32,000 bases of DNA. Source: an uncultured Acidobacteriota bacterium. Its GTDB lineage: Bacteria > Acidobacteriota > Terriglobia > Terriglobales > Acidobacteriaceae. Within the stretch, counting starts at the first letter, position 1, and the number at the start of each line of letters is the position of its first letter. Where the stretch lies: NCBI GenBank assembly GCA_963703465.1, contig CAVPEQ010000004.1:57893-89892 (forward strand), written 5' to 3'. This document shows, one piece after another, positions 6,724-30,899 of the stretch. Under the pieces are notes generated by a model that saw nothing but the letters and a program-made list of their open reading frames with translations, did no database searches and had not been told where the DNA came from. Position numbers and translations under genes: made by a program.

Positions 6724-6804
6724 CAGCTGTTAGCTCTTAGCCTTTAGCTTTTAGCTGAACCCGATTGGGTTTGGCTAAAAGCTAAGAGCTAATGGCTAAA
6801 AGCC
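6724..6804. repeat. Family C hairpin (C1) built from GCTAA[AG][AG] heptads
   Basis: The left arm is CAGCTGTTAGCTCTTAGCCTTTAGCTTTTAGCTGAA (6724-6759). The right arm is TTGGCTAAAAGCTAAGAGCTAATGGCTAAAAGCC (6771-6804). The arms are imperfect reverse complements (about 22 of 26). The hairpin fills the whole cysM-to-JAMM intercistronic gap. Confidence 0.9.
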
Positions 6805-7806
6805 GCCTTCCGTCCAAAATCTCTCGCTCAAATATTTATCGCCGGAGTCAGGGAAGATTGTGACCATCACGGCTTCGTCGTCCTTCTTTAATTTATGTGC
6901 TACCTGCAAACATCCGGCGATGGCCGCTCCTGCCGAGATGCCCAGCAGTAGGCCTTCTTCACGCGAGGCGCGAATCGCATAAGCATAGGCGTCTTCAGTT
7001 GCTATTTCGATGTCTTCGTCGGCCAGCTTGGGATCGTATATCTTCGGCACGATGGCGCTGGCCATGTGCTTCGCGCCCTCGATGCCATGAAACGGCGAAT
7101 CCGGTTGCAGGGAAATGCAGCGTACGTTGGGGTTCAATTCTTTCAAGCGGCGCGACGTGCCCATGAAGGTTCCACTGGTGCCGAGCATGGCCACGAAGTG
7201 CGTGACCCGTCCTTCCGTTTGTTGCCAGATTTCTTCAGCTGTGCCATGGTAGTGAGCCTGCCAGTTGGCCGGGTTCGAATACTGGTCAGCGTAAAAATAT
7301 TTTTCCGGATCGCGGGCGTAGAGTTCGCGTGCCGTAGTAATGGCTCCATCCGATCCGTCAGCAGGGTCGGTGTAGATGATGTTTGCCCCGTAAGCGAATA
7401 GAATGCGCTTGCGCTCAACCGAAACATTCTCCGGCATGCACAGCGTGACCGGAAATCCATCGGCGGCGCCGATCATGGCATAGGCGATGCCGGTGTTGCC
7501 GCTGGTCGAATCGAGCAGAGTTTTGCCGACTGAAAATTTTCCGCTACGCCGTCCTTCTTTCACGATGTTGAAGGCAGCGCGATCTTTTACTGATCCACCC
7601 GGGTTGTACCACTCGGCTTTCCCGAGCAGTTGCACATTAGGCAGATCGCGGACAATGCGCCCCAGCCTCAACAAAGGCGTGTTGCCGATGCGCTCCAAGC
7701 TGCTCTGGCCGAGCTTGGAGTGGCCAATCTCAGTCTCAGGTTCGTCGATTTTGACAGTTGAAGGCCGCATGCGCTTGTGACTATCGTAATGTCGCTGAGA
7801 ATACAA
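6796..7806 (-). CDS. cysM: Cysteine synthase (PLP-dependent; CysM/CysK family); alternative start at 7770
   Basis: It has the PLP-lysine motif GGSVKDR, IGNTPLLRL, the SGNTG loop and GTSGTFMG. It is 336 aa from 7806. The adjacent JAMM gene suggests the CysO-dependent CysM type. Confidence 0.85.
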   Translation of the reverse strand: MYSQRHYDSHKRMRPSTVKIDEPETEIGHSKLGQSSLERIGNTPLLRLGRIVRDLPNVQLLGKAEWYNPGGSVKDRAAFNIVKEGRRSGKFSVGKTLLDSTSGNTGIAYAMIGAADGFPVTLCMPENVSVERKRILFAYGANIIYTDPADGSDGAITTARELYARDPEKYFYADQYSNPANWQAHYHGTAEEIWQQTEGRVTHFVAMLGTSGTFMGTSRRLKELNPNVRCISLQPDSPFHGIEGAKHMASAIVPKIYDPKLADEDIEIATEDAYAYAIRASREEGLLLGISAGAAIAGCLQVAHKLKKDDEAVMVTIFPDSGDKYLSERFWTEGGF

Positions 7807-7910
7807 ATCAGCGCTTAGTGGTTAGATTATAGAAGAGCGCTCTAGGATACAGTGGTTTGGGTATGCGTCGATTAAGTGAGCGACGCATCTAACGATTGAA
7901 GGCAAGCTTT

Positions 7911-8001
7911 TTGCTATTAGCTCTTAGCCTTTAGCTGAAGCGATTTTGTTTTGGCTAAAGGCTAAGAGCTAAAGGCTAAAAGCTAGCAGCTAGGAGCTGA
8001 A
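7911..8001. repeat. Family C hairpin (C2) with an extended heptad array on the right arm
   Basis: TTAGCTCTTAGCCTTTAGC (7917-7935) pairs perfectly (19 bp) with GCTAAAGGCTAAGAGCTAA (7954-7972). The right side then continues as heptads AGGCTAAAAGCTAGCAGCTAGGAGCTGAA to 8001. The loop resembles that of C1. Confidence 0.9.
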
Positions 8002-10672: not shown

Positions 10673-12301
10673 ATGAATTCAATTCCTCTCATCGCCATCG
10701 TCGGCCGGCCAAATGTCGGCAAATCCACGCTGTTCAATCGTCTTGTTGGTTCCCGCCGCGCCATCGTCGGCGACGAACCCGGCATCACTCGCGACCGTTT
10801 GTACGGCGAAGGCCACTGGCGCGGATATGACTTCCGCATCGTCGACACCGGCGGCATCATTCCCGAAGACAAAGATTTCATCCCCTCAGAGATTTTCCGC
10901 CAGGCGCGGGTGGCGCTCGACGAATCTGCCGCGATCGTGATGGTCGTCGATGCCCGCACTGAATTGGCCGGCCCCGATCTCGAACTGGCGCGACTGTTGC
11001 GAAAAACCGGAAAGCCGCTATTCGTAGCGGCGAACAAAGTTGACTCTGACAAGCAGTCATCTCTCGCAGACGACCTTCATCGGCTGGGCATCCGCGAGAT
11101 CATTTCCATTTCCGCCGAGCACGGCCGCGGAGTTGATGACTTGCTGGATGCAATCCTCGCGGCGCTACCGAAAAAAACCCTCACCACAGAGGGCACAGAG
11201 AACACAGAGGGAAAAGCCACAGAGGAAAAACCTGAAGAGGGAAGAATTACAGCGGGTGCCCCGTCCTTCCCGCGTTCTGCGCGGGAGGCTGGGGATGTTG
11301 ACTCCCAATTACCCAGCACAGACGAGACAAAGGACTATCACAAATCCAAGCCCCAGTCTCAAAGGTCGACGCGTCGCCGGGAATCGAAGGTCTTGCCGAA
11401 GAGCGAAGACCGACAACCGACGACCGACGACGAAACTGAAAATGTGGAAGCTCCGGCGCCCTCGGAAGTCAGCGTTGCCATCATCGGCCATCCTAATGTC
11501 GGCAAGTCCACGCTGCTGAATCAACTTACCGGCGCTGACCGCTCGATCGTCTCCCCCGTCCCCGGCACCACGCGCGACGCGGTGGACGAAGTCGTCGAAC
11601 GCGATGGCATGAAGTTCCGTTTCATCGACACCGCGGGAATTCGCCGCAAGGGCAAGACCCACCTCATGGCCGAAAAGCTCTCAGTGGTAATGGCGCGCAA
11701 GCATCTCGAAGCCGCCGACATCGCCCTGCTGGTCATCGACGCCACCGAAGGCGTCAGCGCTCTTGACGCCGCAATCGCCGGCTATGCCCACGAGAGCGGG
11801 CGTTCCATGATCATCGTGGTGAATAAATGGGACCTGGTGACGAGCGGCGACAAAAAAGCCGTAAGCCAATCTCGGACGGCGAGAATTCAAGACGGCAAAC
11901 GCCCCGACGACCGTACCGCTTACGAGCAGCGCCTGCGTTATGCGCTGAAATTTCTGAATTACGCTCCGGTGCTTTTTGTCTCAGCCGCCAAGGGTAAGGG
12001 CACGGATAAAATCTTCCCCACGCTCGAGAAAGTCGCCGCCGAACGCCGCAAGCGCGTGACCACGGGCGAGATGAACCGCTTCCTCAAGCACGTCGACTTC
12101 GACCGCGCTTCGGTCCCAGTGCGCCAGCGCGTGAAAATTCTCTACCTGACCCAGGCTGCCGTGGCTCCCCCGACCTTCATTCTGTTCACCGACCGCCAGG
12201 TGAAGTTGCACTTCTCCTACCAGCGTTTTCTGGAAAACCAGATTAGAGCCGCATTCGGCTTCGTAGGCACACCTATCTGGATTAAAGTTCGAGCTCGCTA
12301 A
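10673..12301 (+). CDS. der: Ribosome-biogenesis GTPase Der (EngA) with an unusually long inter-domain linker
   Basis: It has two G domains (GRPNVGKST...DTGG...NKVD and GHPNVGKST...DTAG...NKWD) and a KH-like C-terminus. It is 542 aa. About 100 codons separate the two G domains. Confidence 0.95.
   Translation: MNSIPLIAIVGRPNVGKSTLFNRLVGSRRAIVGDEPGITRDRLYGEGHWRGYDFRIVDTGGIIPEDKDFIPSEIFRQARVALDESAAIVMVVDARTELAGPDLELARLLRKTGKPLFVAANKVDSDKQSSLADDLHRLGIREIISISAEHGRGVDDLLDAILAALPKKTLTTEGTENTEGKATEEKPEEGRITAGAPSFPRSAREAGDVDSQLPSTDETKDYHKSKPQSQRSTRRRESKVLPKSEDRQPTTDDETENVEAPAPSEVSVAIIGHPNVGKSTLLNQLTGADRSIVSPVPGTTRDAVDEVVERDGMKFRFIDTAGIRRKGKTHLMAEKLSVVMARKHLEAADIALLVIDATEGVSALDAAIAGYAHESGRSMIIVVNKWDLVTSGDKKAVSQSRTARIQDGKRPDDRTAYEQRLRYALKFLNYAPVLFVSAAKGKGTDKIFPTLEKVAAERRKRVTTGEMNRFLKHVDFDRASVPVRQRVKILYLTQAAVAPPTFILFTDRQVKLHFSYQRFLENQIRAAFGFVGTPIWIKVRAR
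11181..11232 (+). repeat. Family B single arm (B2) inside the der coding sequence
   Basis: CACAGAG lies at 11185-11191, 11194-11200, 11203-11209 and 11218-11224. Spacing and flanks resemble right arm 266-308. It is translated in frame as TTEGTENTEGKATEEK. Confidence 0.8.
11252..11296 (+). repeat. Family E palindromic element (E1) inside the der coding sequence
   Basis: The sequence is GCGGGTGCCCCGTCCTTCCCGCGTTCTGCGCGGGAGGCTGGGGAT. It matches the reverse complement of 17428-17470 in blocks of 11, 7 and 11 identical nt. It has an internal hairpin. Confidence 0.8.
11405..11434 (+). repeat. Family D heptad tract (D2) inside the der coding sequence
   Basis: GAAGACCGACAACCGACGACCGACGACGAA resembles the GACCGAA/GGCCGAC heptads at 30868-30899. 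It is translated as EDRQPTTDDE. Confidence 0.6.
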
Positions 12302-15335: not shown

Positions 15336-16199
15336 ATGTTGGAAAATACGCGACATGCCGGTAGCGACCGCCTGCGCCGGATCGAAGGCCGCCACAACTC
15401 GCTGCTAAAGGAATTGCGGCAAGCCTTCAGCCGAGGCGAACTAACGGCTTCCGGTGAGTGCGCCATCGAGGGATTTCGCGTCATCGAAGAAGCCGTCCGC
15501 AGCGGGCTTCGTTTCCGCGCCGTTTTCGTCAGCGAATCCGGCCAGGCCCGCGCCGCGAAACTGCTTCCGCAGATAAAGTCGCAGGTCGAAACTGTATTGA
15601 TCCCCGACAAGCTGTTTGCCAACACAGTTCCCAGCGAGGCTCCTCAGGGCGTGGCTGCTTTGGTCCATGTGAAGACCCACACTCTCGATCAGCTTATGGA
15701 GAACGCTCCGGGGCCGCTGTTGGTAGTCGCCGGCCTACAGGACCCAGGAAATTTGGGCACAATCCTGCGTTCAGCCGAGGCCTTTGGAGCTGCTGGCGTG
15801 GTCTTAGGCGAAGGCACCGTGAGTGTTTACAACAGCAAAGTGGTAAGAGCCTCGGCGGGCTCGGTTTTCCGCGTCGCCGCTCTAAAAGCCGACCTGAAAG
15901 GCGTTATTGAAAAGTTGCGCAACAGCGGTGTCAGGCTGGTTGCGACTTCATCCCACAAAGGCATCGCGCTTCCAAAGACAGATCTCAGTCGCCAGATAGC
16001 CATCTTCATCGGCAACGAAGGCGCCGGTCTCGACAAAAAGCTCATAGCAGAAATGGACGAGCTAATCATGATCCCACATTCACCACGAGTCGAATCCCTG
16101 AACGCAGGAATCGCCGCCAGCATAATCTTGTATGAGGCATCACGGCAGAAAACCATCATCACCACGGAGACACGGAGGCACGGAGAAAACGCGGGCTGA
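15336..16199 (+). CDS. TrmH/SpoU-family RNA 2'-O-methyltransferase (RlmB/TrmH group)
   Basis: It has the SpoU motifs LQDPGNLGTILRSAEAFG, IFIGNEGAGL and IPHSPRVESLNAGIAASIILYE. It is 287 aa. The last ~13 codons (TTETRRHGENAG) are encoded by repeat B3. Confidence 0.85.
   Translation: MLENTRHAGSDRLRRIEGRHNSLLKELRQAFSRGELTASGECAIEGFRVIEEAVRSGLRFRAVFVSESGQARAAKLLPQIKSQVETVLIPDKLFANTVPSEAPQGVAALVHVKTHTLDQLMENAPGPLLVVAGLQDPGNLGTILRSAEAFGAAGVVLGEGTVSVYNSKVVRASAGSVFRVAALKADLKGVIEKLRNSGVRLVATSSHKGIALPKTDLSRQIAIFIGNEGAGLDKKLIAEMDELIMIPHSPRVESLNAGIAASIILYEASRQKTIITTETRRHGENAG
16160..16191 (+). repeat. Family B arm (B3, CACGGAG variant); perfect 32-nt direct repeat of 16585-16616
   Basis: The sequence is CACCACGGAGACACGGAGGCACGGAGAAAACG, with CACGGAG units at 16163, 16171 and 16179. 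It overlaps the 3' end of the methyltransferase gene. Confidence 0.95.
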
Positions 16200-16203
16200 T
16201 TCA

Positions 16204-16578
16204 ATGTTGGTTCACGAACACCTTACGGAACAAATAATTGGTGCAGCGATCGAGGTGCATCGAGAACTCGGCCCTGGTTTACTCGAATCAGCCTATGAAC
16301 AATATTTTTGCCACGAACTGCACCTGCGAGGCTTGGCATTCCAGTGCCAGCTAGATGTGCCAGTCATGTATAAAGGCCTAAAGCTCGATTGCGGATATCG
16401 ACTGGATGTGGTCGTAGACGAAACCGTCGTGATTGAATTGAAGGCCGTCGAACAAATCTTGCCGATTCATCAGGCGCAGTTGCTCACGTACCTACGATTA
16501 AGTGGCAAGAAAGTGGGACTAATCATCAATTTCAATGTCGCAGTCCTCAAGAATGGAATTGTCAGAAGAGTTTTATAG
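16204..16578 (+). CDS. GxxExxY protein (PD-(D/E)XK nuclease-like, PDDEXK_3 / TIGR04256-type)
   Basis: From ATG at 16204 the protein reads MLVHEHLTEQIIGAAIEVHRELGPGLLESAYE... (GxxExxY = GLLESAY). It also has D...VIELK (the D..ExK-like core) and QLLTYLRLSG. It is 124 aa. The listed ORF start at 16132 lies within the upstream repeat and gene. Confidence 0.85.
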   Translation: MLVHEHLTEQIIGAAIEVHRELGPGLLESAYEQYFCHELHLRGLAFQCQLDVPVMYKGLKLDCGYRLDVVVDETVVIELKAVEQILPIHQAQLLTYLRLSGKKVGLIINFNVAVLKNGIVRRVL

Positions 16579-16584
16579 CCGAGC

Positions 16585-16703
16585 CACCACGGAGACACGG
16601 AGGCACGGAGAAAACGTTGTTTTATGATTTGGAGCGGCAAATTGCCGTATGTTCCAGGGTGTTTATAACAAGTTTTCTTCGTGCCTCCGTGTCTCCGTGG
16701 TGA
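16585..16703. repeat. Family B hairpin (B4/B5, CACGGAG variant)
   Basis: Arm 16584-16615 (CCACCACGGAGACACGGAGGCACGGAGAAAAC) and arm 16672-16703 are reverse complements at 30 of 32 positions. The 56-nt loop (16616-16671) contains the palindrome CGGCAA-A-TTGCCG. Confidence 0.95.
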
Positions 16704-16715
16704 AATGGTTTTTTC

Positions 16716-18155
16716 ATGAGTCTCTTCCAAGCGATTCCCGGCGGCAGTAACCCCGACGATCGCGGCCGTCCTCTCGCCGATCGCATGCGCCCGCGCACGC
16801 TCGACGAATACGTCGGCCAGGAGCATCTGATCGCGCCCGGCAAGCCTCTGCGCGCGCAGATCGAGCGCGATGACATCGGCTCACTCATCTTTTGGGGACC
16901 TCCCGGCACCGGCAAGACCACACTCGCAAAAATCATTGCCAGCATGGCTCGAGCTGAATTCATCGAGTTCAGCGCCGTGCTTTCCGGGATCAAAGAGATT
17001 AAGCAAGTGATGGCCGACGCCGAACGCGGACGCCAGTACGGCACTCGAACCATCGTCTTCGTCGACGAAATTCACCGCTTCAACAAAGCCCAGCAGGACG
17101 CATTCCTTCCCCACGTTGAGAAAGGCAACATTCGCCTGATCGGCGCGACCACCGAGAACCCATCGTTTGAAATTATTTCCGCGCTGCTATCCCGCAGCCG
17201 CGTGTACGTGCTCAAACCACTCACCGAAGAACAGATCGTAATTCTGCTGCGCCGCGCGCTTGAAGACGCAGAACGCGGCCTGGGCGCGATGAAATTGTCC
17301 GCCAGCGATGACGTTTTTCGCCAAATCGCAGCTTATTCCAGTGGCGACGCCCGCAGCGCCTATAACGTGCTAGAGGTCGCGGCCGCGCTGGCTACGGTCG
17401 ACACCCGACTCGGGAAAGAAAGTCAAAATACCCAGCCTCCCCGGAAAACGGGGAAGGCTGGGGCACCCGCAGAAATTTCCGGCGCACACGAGATCACCAC
17501 CGAGATCGTTCAGGATGCTCTCCAGAAGCGCGTGCTGCTTTACGACAAAGCCGGTGAAGAGCATTACAACCTGATTTCGGCGCTGCATAAGTCGGTACGC
17601 AATAGCGATCCCGACGCCTCACTCTACTGGCTGGCGCGCATGCTCGAAGCCGGCGAGGATCCGCTGTACATCGCCCGCCGCATTGTGCGAATGGCCGTCG
17701 AAGACATCGGCCTCGCCGATCCCAACGCGCTTGGGTTGTGCATGGCCGCACGCGACGCGATCGAATTCCTGGGCATGCCGGAAGGCAATCTTGCATTGGC
17801 ACAAGCTGCCGTCTATCTTGCCATTGCTCCGAAGTCGAACGCTCTATATACCGCGTATTCCGACGTTCAGCAGGATGTCGAACGCACCGCGGCCGAGCCC
17901 GTTCCGTTACATCTTCGCAACGCGCCCACCGGCCTCATGAAGAACCTCGGCTATGGTCAGGGATACCAATACGCTCACGATCTCGAAAACAAAATCGCAG
18001 ACATGCAGTGCCTGCCCGACAATCTGAAAGATCGCCGCTACTACCATCCCACGAACGAAGGCGTAGAAAAACGCATCCGCCAACGCTTGGAAGAAATCCG
18101 TTCGCAGCGATCAGCATCCCCAACCCGAGAAACTAAAACAGAATCCGGCGAATAG
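16716..18155 (+). CDS. rarA: Replication-associated recombination protein A (RarA/MgsA AAA+ ATPase)
   Basis: It has [14 protein letters not shown], Walker [10 protein letters not shown], Walker [21 protein letters not shown], and the MgsA C-terminal motifs ([36 protein letters not shown]). It is 479 aa. Confidence 0.92.
17428..17470 (-). repeat. Family E palindromic element (E2) inside the rarA coding sequence, inverted relative to E1
   Basis: The sequence is ATACCCAGCCTCCCCGGAAAACGGGGAAGGCTGGGGCACCCGC. The internal hairpin is CCCAGCCTCCCCG / CGGGGAAGGCTGGG. The reverse complement aligns to 11252-11296. It is translated as [15 protein letters not shown]. Confidence 0.8.
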
Positions 18156-29359: not shown

Positions 29360-30841
29360 CTAAGCGCCCTGCACGAAGGCTTCGCCGGTACCCAATATTT
29401 CCTGCACCAGCTCCGGCGATGCCGCTTCCGCATAAACCCGCAATAACGGCTCCGTGCCCGAAGCGCGAAACAGGATCCATGCCTCAGCCCCATTCCCGTT
29501 GGTCGGTGCATCGAGAAAGAACTTAATCCCGTCGAGTGTTTCTTTCTTGATCACGCCATATTTCCCGAGGCGCTTTGTGGATTCCGACTTCGCCCGTTCG
29601 ATGGCGCCGAACTTAATATCGTCAGCGATGTGAAGATCGCGGCGTCCATAAAAATGCGGCCCGTATTCCTTCTGTAACGAAGCCACCAGCGCGCCCAGCG
29701 GCTTCTTCTCTTCCGCCAGCACATTCGCCAGCAGCAGGGAATTCAGAATACCGTCGCGCTCCGGAAGATACCGCGAATATCCGATCCCGCCCGACTCTTC
29801 GCCGCCAATCACGATCTCCCGCTCCATCATCAAATCGGCAATGTGTTTGAATCCGATCGGGCACTCGTTCAACTTGCGCCCATATTTACCTGCGATGCGG
29901 TCGAGCATGCGCGTGGTATTGAACGCGCGCACCACCTCGCCCGGCCACTGCTTGCGCCGCAACACCCACTCCAGCAGCACAGAAAATATTTTGTGTGAAT
30001 CCACAAAGCTGCCGTCTTCCGCGACTGCGCCAATTCGATCGGCATCGCCGTCGGTCGCAAAACCCGCATGGCAATGTTCGCGCACCACCGTCTCCTGCAG
30101 CATGCGCACATGCGGCTCGATCGGCTCAGGATTAATCTCCGGGAACAGCGGATTGACTTCCTGCCGTATCGCCACAAAATCGATCCCGTGTTCTTTAAAA
30201 ATTTGCGCCAGAATCCCGCGCCCCGAACCGTACATGGAATCCACAGCAAATTTAAATTTCGCTTTCGCAATCAAATCCAGATCAGCAAACTTGCAAACCG
30301 CGCGAATGTACGCCGGCTTCAGATCAACCTCCTCGATCTTCGCCTGCTTGCCTTTCGGAGCCGTTCCCGCGGCCACCTCCTGCTCGATCACTTTCATGAT
30401 CGCCGGGGTCGCCGATCCGCCAAACTTCGCCTTGAATTTGACGCCATTCCAATTCCACGGATTGTGGCTTGAAGTGATGACCACGCCCCCGGCAGCGCCC
30501 ATGTTTTTCACCGCAAACGAAATCGCCGGAGTCGGAGAGTAATCGCTGGCCAGCTTAATCGGAATTCCTGCGGCAGCCAATACCTCCGCCGCAGCCCGCG
30601 CGAATTGCGGCGATCCAAACCGCGTGTCATAGCCCACGATCAACCCGCGAGACGGATCTTCATGCTTCAGCACATACGCCGCGATCGCCCCCGCAACCCG
30701 GCGCACATTTTCAAACGTGAAATCGTCGGCGATGATCGCGCGCCAACCGTCAGTGCCGAACTTGATGGGAGCCATCGGTCGCCGGTCATCGGTCGTCGGC
30801 AATGGCGGATTGATGTTTGCGGTTTTAGTTTCTGTGACCAT
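29360..30841 (-). CDS. Phosphoglucomutase/phosphomannomutase-family (alpha-D-phosphohexomutase) enzyme; start ambiguous (30841, 30775 or 30865)
   Basis: It has FGTDGWR, the active-site TSSHNPWNWNG, the metal loop TDGDADR, and GGEESGG. ATG at 30841 follows GAGGATAGGGAG. ATG at 30775 (MAPIKFGTDGWR) fits the usual N-terminus of the family but has no SD. Confidence 0.9.
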   Translation of the reverse strand: MVTETKTANINPPLPTTDDRRPMAPIKFGTDGWRAIIADDFTFENVRRVAGAIAAYVLKHEDPSRGLIVGYDTRFGSPQFARAAAEVLAAAGIPIKLASDYSPTPAISFAVKNMGAAGGVVITSSHNPWNWNGVKFKAKFGGSATPAIMKVIEQEVAAGTAPKGKQAKIEEVDLKPAYIRAVCKFADLDLIAKAKFKFAVDSMYGSGRGILAQIFKEHGIDFVAIRQEVNPLFPEINPEPIEPHVRMLQETVVREHCHAGFATDGDADRIGAVAEDGSFVDSHKIFSVLLEWVLRRKQWPGEVVRAFNTTRMLDRIAGKYGRKLNECPIGFKHIADLMMEREIVIGGEESGGIGYSRYLPERDGILNSLLLANVLAEEKKPLGALVASLQKEYGPHFYGRRDLHIADDIKFGAIERAKSESTKRLGKYGVIKKETLDGIKFFLDAPTNGNGAEAWILFRASGTEPLLRVYAEAASPELVQEILGTGEAFVQGA

Positions 30842-30899
30842 CAGCTCCCTATCCTCTTCGCGCACTGGCCGACGACCGAAGACCGAAGGCCGACGACCC
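30774..30899. repeat. Family D hairpin (D1) built from GACCGA[AC] / [AG]TCGGTC heptads
   Basis: Arm 30774-30800 is ATCGGTC GCCGGTC ATCGGTC GTCGGC. Arm 30868-30899 is GCCGAC GACCGAA GACCGAA GGCCGAC GACCC. The arms are reverse complementary at about 22 of 27 positions. The loop is 68 nt. Confidence 0.8.

Follow-up and report, generated by a model that had tools for sequence, protein, structure and literature searches.

A GxxExxY gene in a 32,000-nt stretch of DNA from an uncultured Acidobacteriota bacterium (hereafter, the window) lies between two inverted arrays of a tandem heptamer. The same bracket is found in nearly every relative examined, across several phyla, and hairpins of this type that lack the gene are much commoner than the gene itself. 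Together, these two observations point to an undescribed gene-plus-repeat system. We tentatively propose that the nuclease is the cognate enzyme of the hairpins, in a system that acts on DNA and resembles either REPIN/RAYT or homing, a reading to which we give somewhat less than an even chance. Our search of the literature on GxxExxY, PF13366 and PDDEXK_3 found no paper describing a repeat association.

Architecture of the element

The element is flanked by two genes of the forward strand: upstream, a SpoU-family RNA 2'-O-methyltransferase gene (15336-16199; PF00588, E = 2.4e-35; syntenic in 19 Terriglobales genomes) and downstream, the gene of the recombination-factor ATPase rarA/mgsA (16716-18155; PF12002, E = 8e-72, and synteny). 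These profile matches bear out the neighbours that an earlier note on this DNA had named. The left arm (F; 16149-16191, forward strand) consists of AAAACCAT, TCAC, three CACGGAG units at 8-nt spacing, and AAAACG. It is followed by the GxxExxY gene (16204-16578, forward strand; 124 aa plus stop codon), of predicted PD-(D/E)XK fold, a second direct copy of the arm (16585-16616, forward strand), a loop (16617-16671) and the right arm (R; 16672-16712, reverse strand).

The perfect 32-nt direct repeat described earlier around the ORF is indeed present: its first copy, 16160-16191 of the left arm, is identical at 32/32 positions to 16585-16616, which also forms the left arm of a short hairpin. Two details of the earlier description change. 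In the best register, 16159-16190 and 16584-16615 are complementary to 16672-16703 at 31/32 rather than 30/32 positions, and with 32-nt arms the loop measures 55 nt, not 56 nt. The inverted repeat runs 8 nt farther out, where AAAACCAT (16149-16156) pairs with ATGGTTTT (16705-16712), the outer extension of the right arm. A 23-nt core, CACGGAGACACGGAGGCACGGAG, is present in three copies in the window and in none of 100 dinucleotide-preserving shuffles. Folded as DNA, the short hairpin (16585-16703) reaches -47.8 kcal/mol, with z = -11.5 against shuffles.

The methyltransferase reading frame passes through the left arm, which encodes its last ~13 codons (TTETRRHGENAG, then stop), and the GxxExxY gene starts 4 nt past the methyltransferase stop codon. 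No promoter-like site was seen between these two genes.

Other heptamer repeats occur in the window. A related empty hairpin of the same superfamily (205-310), with four CACAGAG units per arm, has the opposite polarity, CTCTGTG arrays coming first. A solitary arm of four CACAGAG units (11183-11230, forward strand) is translated in frame within the inter-domain linker of der/engA. Hairpin families of GCTAA-type and GACCGA-type heptamers are present as well, with no linked gene in view.

The GxxExxY protein

The family assignment made in the earlier note is upheld: the protein of the window scores 148.4 bits against TIGR04256, GxxExxY (cut-off 35; E = 1e-43) and 141.7 bits against PF13366, PDDEXK_3 (cut-off 22; E = 1.7e-41). 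The latter is its only Pfam match, and no transposase domain was detected. The catalytic residues are present on alignment: G25-L-L-E28-S-A-Y31, D68 and E78-x-K80 are invariant among 21 close and 12 distant relatives. The predicted order of secondary-structure elements, α-α-β-β-β-α-β, fits the PD-(D/E)XK core fold, and a dN/dS of 0.145 against the orthologue of locus L013 indicates purifying selection on the protein.

An AlphaFold model reaches a pLDDT of 78; its comparison with the PDB by Foldseek gave nothing below E = 0.07 and was uninformative, and a sequence search of the PDB returned a chance match alone, with no solved structure. The PADLOC defence search yielded no more than a weak match to Cas4 (E = 0.005), the PHROGs search for a phage role gave no match, and no close GxxExxY relatives were found in viral contigs. 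The family as a whole is very large, with ~22,000 clusters at 50% identity. A role in DNA repair, to which the neighbours rarA, ligA and radA would point, was rejected: other sites lie in unrelated host operons (secDF, fab, ispH-shc, aldehyde dehydrogenase, carboxyltransferase).

Bracketing by inverted heptamer arrays

Loci were compared as segments of 12-40 kb. Among the close relatives, the nearest upstream array is F and the nearest downstream array R at 62 of 78 scored loci. Under a strict definition, the bracket is present around 48 of 81 GxxExxY genes and around none of the 2166 other ORFs that encode 100 aa or more at the same loci. The gap between an arm and the adjacent start or stop codon is 0-20 nt, and the heptamers, of consensus C[AG]C-N-[AG]A[AG], are arranged in tandem and inverted around the gene.

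The pattern extends to distant relatives. At many loci in clades of 45-66% identity, inverted tandem arrays are found no more than about 20 nt from the gene, with cores that include CACGAAG, CACCAAG, CACAAAG, CGCAAAG, CGCAGAG and others. Bacteroides finegoldii, Bernardetia, Sphingomonas and Gemmatirosa carry the same bracket in their annotated records, and it recurs at about 150 loci in at least seven phyla. The association and its generality are thereby established, and the tie between the gene and a structured repeat family, first proposed from the window alone, is kept in nearly every relative examined. The arms themselves are conserved: synonymous sites are saturated beyond L013, and the arms are still near consensus. 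Both array polarities occur around the GxxExxY gene; solitary arms and direct arm-gene-arm layouts also exist.

Empty hairpins

An arm-first sample of 725 kb contained 219 arms and 44 short empty hairpins, with 0 GxxExxY genes. In Gemmatirosa, 5 hairpins were counted in 40 kb, versus 3 gene matches on the whole 1.1-Mb replicon. Hairpins were also found in phage contigs without a GxxExxY gene. Some hairpin loops contain a further hairpin.

Within a locus, the heptamers of other arrays match the gene-flanking ones at 0.27 versus 0.10 when permuted, and none of 2000 permutations gave a value as high. In B. finegoldii, the signature CACAGAG-CGCAGAG-CACAGAG is common to the arms of the gene and to other arms. 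Such a match of types would also follow if the gene merely adopts the existing hairpins of its genome.

We looked for other cargo genes in hairpins and rejected this possibility: in the arm-first sample, ORFs between distant arms were either ordinary phage genes, lying between two separate hairpins (Mu gp27, P22 coat), or had no Pfam match.

History of the methyltransferase-rarA site

The site between the methyltransferase gene and rarA is occupied by a GxxExxY gene in 19 Terriglobales species, and the identity of the protein there follows that of the neighbouring genes. Loci L008, L014, L015, L017, L019 and L020 have an arm-gene-inverted arm layout without the second direct copy; the only right arm of such loci is the orthologue of the right arm in the window. 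Judging from the aligned orthologues, this simpler layout is the ancestral one at the site. The second arm and the 55-nt loop are confined to the clade of the window and L013 (the loop is ~80% conserved in L007), so they are a later addition 3' of the gene and not the footprint of its insertion. The earlier picture of a hairpin whose left arm was duplicated around an inserted gene is thus not sustained, as the orthologous loci ancestrally show a single left arm.

Population variants L002-L004 carry a diverged second copy of the loop-arm module (loop2 plus arm), and the window's own population differs in unit number and in extra loop-arm modules. The arm-gene-arm-loop-arm layout arose independently in L073, L214, L219 and L288. 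These recurrences, and the variation within one population, suggest ongoing local rearrangement. The loop was considered as an internally deleted remnant of the gene and rejected as such: its split-anchored alignment scores -5, whereas shuffles average -4.5 and equal or exceed it in 585 of 1000 cases. To see whether the loop belongs to a dispersed family, 2.2 Mb of fetched DNA were searched by blastn-short, which detected it at this locus only.

The confinement of the second arm copy and loop to one clade, and of the loop to one locus in all DNA fetched, would fit a one-off tandem duplication beside an ordinary gene and a terminator hairpin. Such a local accident is already contradicted by the recurrence of the bracket across clades, at about 150 loci in at least seven phyla, and by its absence from all 2166 other ORFs. 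The direct-repeat layout arose more than once, and the core is absent from all shuffles; we regard this explanation as highly improbable.

The comparison of empty and occupied hairpins among relatives, suggested in the earlier note, gave one half of the contrast: all 19 orthologous loci are occupied, and no vacant allele was found among them or in 6 population contigs. No pair of empty and occupied alleles was found at any one site. To find a vacant allele, the RarA and methyltransferase proteins of the window were looked up by exact sequence, which returned no record, and the flanks of other conserved GxxExxY sites were not found in the window. Degenerate copies are few: L016 holds one partial GxxExxY copy.

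Movement and boundaries of the unit

The boundaries of the unit are clear, as DNA homology between sites starts and stops at the outer arm ends. No target-site duplication was seen at the compared junctions. The proteins at the methyltransferase-rarA site are polyphyletic, copies at the ligA site nesting among them, and similarity across phyla reaches 60-70%. L036 and L040 are two copies 19 kb apart on one contig. The gene lies in housekeeping operons (secD|secF, fabD|fabG, ispH|shc) and is co-oriented with its upstream neighbour in 97 of 113 cases and with its downstream neighbour in 77 of 96. A classical TIR transposon or MITE was rejected, given the lack of target-site duplication, the two array polarities and the missing transposase domain.

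Much of this would fit a selfish, promoterless endonuclease gene that cuts the loops of independently spread hairpins and is copied into them by repair; the hairpins would then be a generic intergenic repeat, and the gene would have no part in multiplying the empty ones. The gene does take the loop position in hairpins of either polarity, and its copies at different sites have only the arm-to-arm segment in common. Polyphyletic proteins at one site, site switches, co-oriented placement in housekeeping operons, the similarity across phyla and the phage contigs with hairpins but without the gene all agree with homing. However, homing endonuclease genes tend to decay after fixation, and here one site is kept through saturated synonymous divergence under purifying selection, with few degenerate copies and no vacant allele of an occupied site found. 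We consider such a purely homing gene unlikely.

DNA-level or RNA-level signal

Alternatively, the arms could pair in the read-through transcript, forming a ~30-bp stem around the ORF like that of the intervening sequences (IVS) of 23S rRNA. A double-strand RNase such as RNase III would excise the cassette or control its translation, empty hairpins would be mRNA-stabilising or terminator-like elements, and the function of the protein would be unrelated to the repeats. Size and layout do resemble the Coxiella IVS (PMC4990558). An RNA fold predicts the long-range stem, the inner arm unit has a GGAG at Shine-Dalgarno distance from the ATG, the gene has no promoter of its own and is co-oriented with its operon neighbours, and variable arm positions agree between arms above expectation.

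However, mismatches between the arms show no excess of G:U (28, versus 27 A:C, on the sense strand), and pairing fails at the spacer positions in between one third and one half of the loci. The heptamer sequence itself, beyond its pairing, is conserved across phyla, and solitary arms and direct arm-gene-arm layouts are tolerated. An Rfam search gave only generic miRNA-precursor and long-hairpin matches, all below the gathering score. Pairing in RNA also offers no account of why one protein family is bracketed and no other ORF is. We find this explanation unlikely; the lack of G:U bias, the two polarities and the nested hairpins suggest a signal at the DNA level.

Comparison with known systems

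The likeness to REP elements and their RAYTs, drawn in the earlier note, is apt. In both cases inverted copies of a hairpin repeat that is dispersed in the genome stand on either side of a small nuclease-type gene, with few genes and many repeats; the signatures of B. finegoldii and Gemmatirosa show a gene flanked by dispersed repeats of its own genome. RAYT genes keep the same extragenic space in related species, with largely vertical inheritance (10.1101/2021.07.10.451892). The GxxExxY gene occupies one site in 19 related species and its identity follows that of the neighbouring genes, yet the proteins at that site are polyphyletic, two copies can share a contig and similarity crosses phyla. 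In contrast, the protein is a 124-aa PD-(D/E)XK protein and not an HUH/Y1 transposase (PF01797). The arms are tandem heptamer arrays of 8-10-nt spacing, not a single GTAG-headed REP palindrome, and the gene usually sits inside one hairpin, at most 20 nt from each arm. Unlike RAYT genes, it also switches site and crosses phyla. At L009, a Y1_Tnp gene is found at a distance of 2 kb from the element, outside the unit.

The 23S rRNA IVS of Coxiella measures 428 nt, carries a small ORF, is closed by a 28-bp stem at its ends and is cut by RNase III (PMC4990558). IVS of this kind (Coxiella, Leptospira; S23p four-helix-bundle ORF) have several features in common with our element: a length near 430-450 nt, terminal inverted repeats that form a stem of some 28-30 bp, and a single small promoterless ORF inside it. 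IVS are suspected selfish elements (PMC4990558), a suspicion that extends to ours. Unlike the IVS, the window's element lies between protein-coding genes rather than in rRNA helix 25 or 45, its ORF belongs to PF13366 rather than PF05635, its arms consist of periodic units whose sequence is kept across phyla, and no sign of selection at the RNA level was seen in it.

Free-standing homing endonuclease genes and TnpB-type homing likewise involve a promoterless nuclease gene at a defined sequence, embedded in host transcription units, and share the spread proposed here, by break-induced copying from a loaded copy. TnpB-type homing keeps transposons in place. Here, in contrast, the proposed target is a dispersed repeat, so each genome would offer many eligible sites. 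The flanking homology consists of arms of about 30 nt only, and one site shows long purifying selection with no empty/occupied allele pair found.

Finally, the STRR heptanucleotide repeats of cyanobacteria are tandem 7-nt units in inverted intergenic arrays. Similar 7-nt arrays, of the GCTAA type and others, are present in the window and in the fetched loci.

Proposed mechanism and implications

In the model we favour, the unit would be a promoterless GxxExxY gene between two inverted heptamer arrays (three CACGGAG, 8-nt spacing, TTCAC caps). Binding, cleavage and copying at the arrays are the steps that we infer. The protein would recognise the arrays, probably as a multimer, and cut at the arms or beside them. 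The break would be repaired from another hairpin, with the arms of about 25-30 nt serving as homology; repair would thus multiply empty hairpins and, now and then, put the gene into a new hairpin site. The gene would then stay for long at fixed sites in host operons, transcribed by read-through. The protein may mobilise the hairpins or the gene may home into them, the two alternatives raised in the earlier note.

The arm-gene-arm-loop-inverted arm layout of the window would be a derived state, beginning with a break in the DNA that separates the gene from the right arm. The arm-ended 3' strand may then have invaded an ectopic empty hairpin and copied its loop and partner arm, before end joining.

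On a wider scale, GxxExxY proteins might serve a pan-bacterial system of tandem-heptamer hairpins as its enzymes, a PD-(D/E)XK counterpart of REPIN-RAYT. They would generate, maintain and home into the repeats in Acidobacteriota, Planctomycetota, Bacteroidota, Pseudomonadota and Gemmatimonadota as well as phages, and the system might explain STRR-like heptamer repeats too. We advance this broader proposal as a possibility, and a doubtful one.

The system is present in culturable, tractable bacteria such as Bacteroides finegoldii, whose GxxExxY proteins include WP_032839887.1, and is therefore directly testable. If true, our reading would offer a first clue to the function of a family that ranks among the largest uncharacterised families of small nucleases, and would explain the origin of widespread periodic hairpin repeats of bacterial and phage genomes. 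A small enzyme that reads a 7-bp unit in arrays could then also be a useful tool. It would further mean that the lifestyle of a domesticated enzyme with its population of repeats arose with a fold other than that of HUH transposases.

The GxxExxY gene and its repeats

The GxxExxY gene of the window (16204-16578; 124 aa; TIGR04256, E 1e-43; PF13366 PDDEXK_3, E 1.7e-41) lies between two direct copies of CACCACGGAGACACGGAGGCACGGAGAAAACG, at 16160-16191 and 16585-16616. As the earlier note had claimed, these copies are perfect (32/32). The 23-nt core of the repeat has 0 occurrences in 100 shuffles of the window. The inverted copy described in the same note is present at 16672-16703, but matches at 31/32 positions in its best register instead of 30/32; the inverted repeat extends another 8 nt outward, where AAAACCAT pairs with ATGGTTTT. 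An arm consists of TCAC, three CACGGAG units at 8-nt spacing and AAAAC. The short hairpin formed by the second direct copy and the inverted arm is very stable.

Upstream, the arm encodes the last 13 codons of a SpoU-type methyltransferase, whose stop codon is 4 nt away from the GxxExxY ATG; rarA is the downstream neighbour. Between the genes there is no promoter-like or terminator-like site. In CACAGAG-armed orthologues (comparison locus L036:5937-5980), the methyltransferase stop and the GxxExxY start appear to overlap in an ATGA, and the GxxExxY frame continues across the left arm (MRLITTEAQRHRE...), which thus becomes an N-terminal extension of the protein. Many database members of the family likewise have N- or C-terminal tails encoded by arms.

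The methyltransferase|rarA site in relatives

A scan of species-representative genomes yielded 80 loci with 60-92 % protein identity. In 19 of them, all Terriglobales (Acidobacteriota), the gene occupies the methyltransferase|rarA site, and its protein identity (63-92 %) declines in parallel with that of the methyltransferase (54-91 %) and RarA (73-94 %). Compared with the closest orthologue the gene has a dN/dS of 0.145, and synonymous sites are saturated beyond it; it has therefore long been resident and evolves under purifying selection.

Locus L008 and the orthologues at 74-81 % have a plain layout of arm, gene and inverted arm. In the window and in L013/L007 of its clade, and only there, the stop codon is separated from the right arm by an extra arm and loop; the direct repeat is thus a derived state, added 3' of the gene, and not, as previously proposed, a left arm duplicated by insertion of the gene. 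Six metagenome contigs encode an identical GxxExxY protein between the same gene pair; two or three of them hold an extra, diverged module of loop2 plus arm, and their arms count 2, 3 or 4 units, so that the population is polymorphic on the 3' side. In the variants L002 (1085-1290) and L004 (590-800), with identical protein, the module consists of an arm of two units, CATTGG, a second loop (~75 % similarity to the first) and one more arm, which in L004 has four units: this is a structural polymorphism inside one population.

Arrays bracket the gene across phyla

In close relatives, the nearest array is of the purine-rich form at the start of the gene and its reverse complement at the stop in 62/78 scored loci, mostly 0-20 nt from the ORF. 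By a strict test, 48/81 GxxExxY genes are bracketed, versus 0/2166 other ORFs of >=100 aa in the same DNA. The family counts 22,362 clusters (50 % identity, E <= 1e-3). When a metagenome scan was started from distant members, in clades at 45-66 % identity, inverted tandem arrays again appeared around the gene, with heptamer cores that are variants of C[AG]C-N-[AG]A[AG] (CACGAAG, CACCAAG, CACAAAG, CGCAAAG, CGCAGAG and CGCCGAG). The bracket is also seen in annotated records: Bacteroides finegoldii (radA, then arm-GxxExxY-arm, then the next gene), Sphingomonas (fabD, GxxExxY, fabG), Bernardetia (inverted arrays around the gene) and Gemmatirosa (a complete hairpin on each side). The sites are unrelated housekeeping operons, e.g. 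secD|secF, ispH|shc or aldehyde dehydrogenase|aminotransferase, and the gene is co-oriented with its upstream neighbour in 97/113 cases and with its downstream one in 77/96.

Constraint on the arms

At the fourth heptamer position, which is variable, the two arms agree in 92 % of loci (47 % expected); spacers agree in 53-67 % (36-40 % expected). Arm mismatches show no excess of G:U over A:C (28 versus 27, plus 47 transversion-type), the heptamer itself is kept across phyla, and both array polarities are found around the gene. Judged from these sequence patterns, the heptamer unit is probably recognised at the DNA level, with the two arms in concerted evolution; the same patterns speak against an mRNA stem as the only target of selection, although an RNA-stem (IVS-like) variant is possible.

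Movement and rearrangement

In a neighbour-joining tree, proteins of the methyltransferase|rarA site split into at least three clades, the CACAGAG-armed group joins proteins of another site, and two ligA-site copies are nested within the window's clade. On alignment of ligA- and rarA-site DNA, similarity runs from TTCACCAC to GTGGTGAA(ATGG) between unrelated flanks, with no evident target duplication. Terriglobales and Planctomycetota share proteins of up to 70 % identity with the same arms. The unit is therefore vertically persistent, yet switches site and host.

Derived layouts of three kinds have each arisen repeatedly and independently: arm-gene-arm-loop-arm (L073, L214, L219, L288), hairpin-gene-hairpin (L041, L090, L091, Gemmatirosa) and tandem arm-gene repeats (L016 and L073). 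Alongside the tandem repeats there are fused double GxxExxY proteins of 260-295 aa, in some of which catalytic residues of the second domain have been lost. These arm-gene-arm-gene arrays and double-domain proteins (protein entries P0121-P0133, L016:5748-6414, L073:80-740) suggest that the working unit is a dimer and that the arms have mediated repeated tandem duplications.

Hairpins without the gene

A search of viral contigs with the arm as sole query yielded 725 kb of sequence with 219 arms, lying between ordinary phage genes, and 44 hairpins of the arm-loop-arm type (loops, 9-130 nt); no GxxExxY gene was found in these 725 kb. The Gemmatirosa replicon has five hairpins in 40 kb versus three gene matches in its entire 1.1 Mb. 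Other arrays of a locus match the gene-flanking heptamers at 0.27, versus 0.10 when permuted (0/2000 permutations as high).

Several viral-contig loops hold a second hairpin composed of another repeat unit, or a palindrome rich in G+C that resembles the window's; loops are thus targets of insertion. In phage-like contigs, CGCAGAT, CACGAAG and AATTTG-type hairpins are nested in CACRGAG hairpin loops (L098:1405-1582, L108:230-405, L109:3344-3475, L110:5771-5944, L132:2150-2303, L134:2134-2301), a pattern implying that insertion favours such loops.

Other repeats

The window's palindrome, the REP-like GTGTGGGGCGGGCGCCCNCGCCCGCC, has six copies (985, 2977, 3793, 5181, 6262 and 10609), and a similar one lies within a CACNGAG hairpin loop of viral contig L095 (3648-3757). 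A 148-aa Y1 transposase gene (PF01797, RAYT/IS200-like; L009:6587-7033) follows a GxxExxY unit at a distance of 2 kb; it may belong with such palindromes rather than with the heptamer hairpins.

At 205-310, after an ABC-ATPase gene, lies an intergenic empty hairpin whose arms each have four CACAGAG-type units, in the opposite polarity (CTCTGTG arrays, then CACAGAG). Repeat arms also appear to have colonised the coding linker of der/engA (10673-12301): its 542-aa GTPase ORF has an insertion of ~100 aa between the two GTPase domains, with an in-frame CACAGAG x4 arm (TTEGTENTEGKATEE, 11183-11230) and, ~170 nt further, a GACCGA-type tandem array (11392-11425). Tandem GACCGA-type arms (TCGGTC... 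/ ...GACCGA) with a 53-nt loop form a hairpin of a third periodic family at 30775-30893. Two 79-nt hairpins of 7-nt GCTAA-type units (6725-6803 and 7905-7984) flank a PLP-dependent (PALP) gene (6796-7806, minus strand); this periodic family is distinct from the heptamer hairpins of GxxExxY, with no linked gene in view within the window.

A candidate gene-plus-repeat system

No description of a repeat association was found in the few papers retrieved that mention GxxExxY or PF13366. The likeness to REP elements and RAYTs drawn in the earlier note holds for behaviour, in which REPIN-RAYT is the nearest analogue; the unit is not a member, because it differs in the fold of its enzyme, in how the repeats are built and in mobility. 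In form, the nearest analogue is the ORF-bearing 23S rRNA intervening sequence, which differs in location and ORF family.

The observations agree with a gene-plus-repeat system whose enzyme, the GxxExxY nuclease, would bind and cleave heptamer-array hairpins. Breaks made at the arms would be repaired with other hairpins as template, the arms providing the homology. For the window's layout, an arm-ended 3' strand would prime on an ectopic hairpin, whose loop and partner arm would be copied before the ends are rejoined. A homing-only variant of this model is possible. The gene-plus-repeat model would explain the bracket around the gene, the excess of empty hairpins and the type matching within genomes, as well as arm conservation, arm-bounded site switches, nested hairpins and the derived layout of the window.
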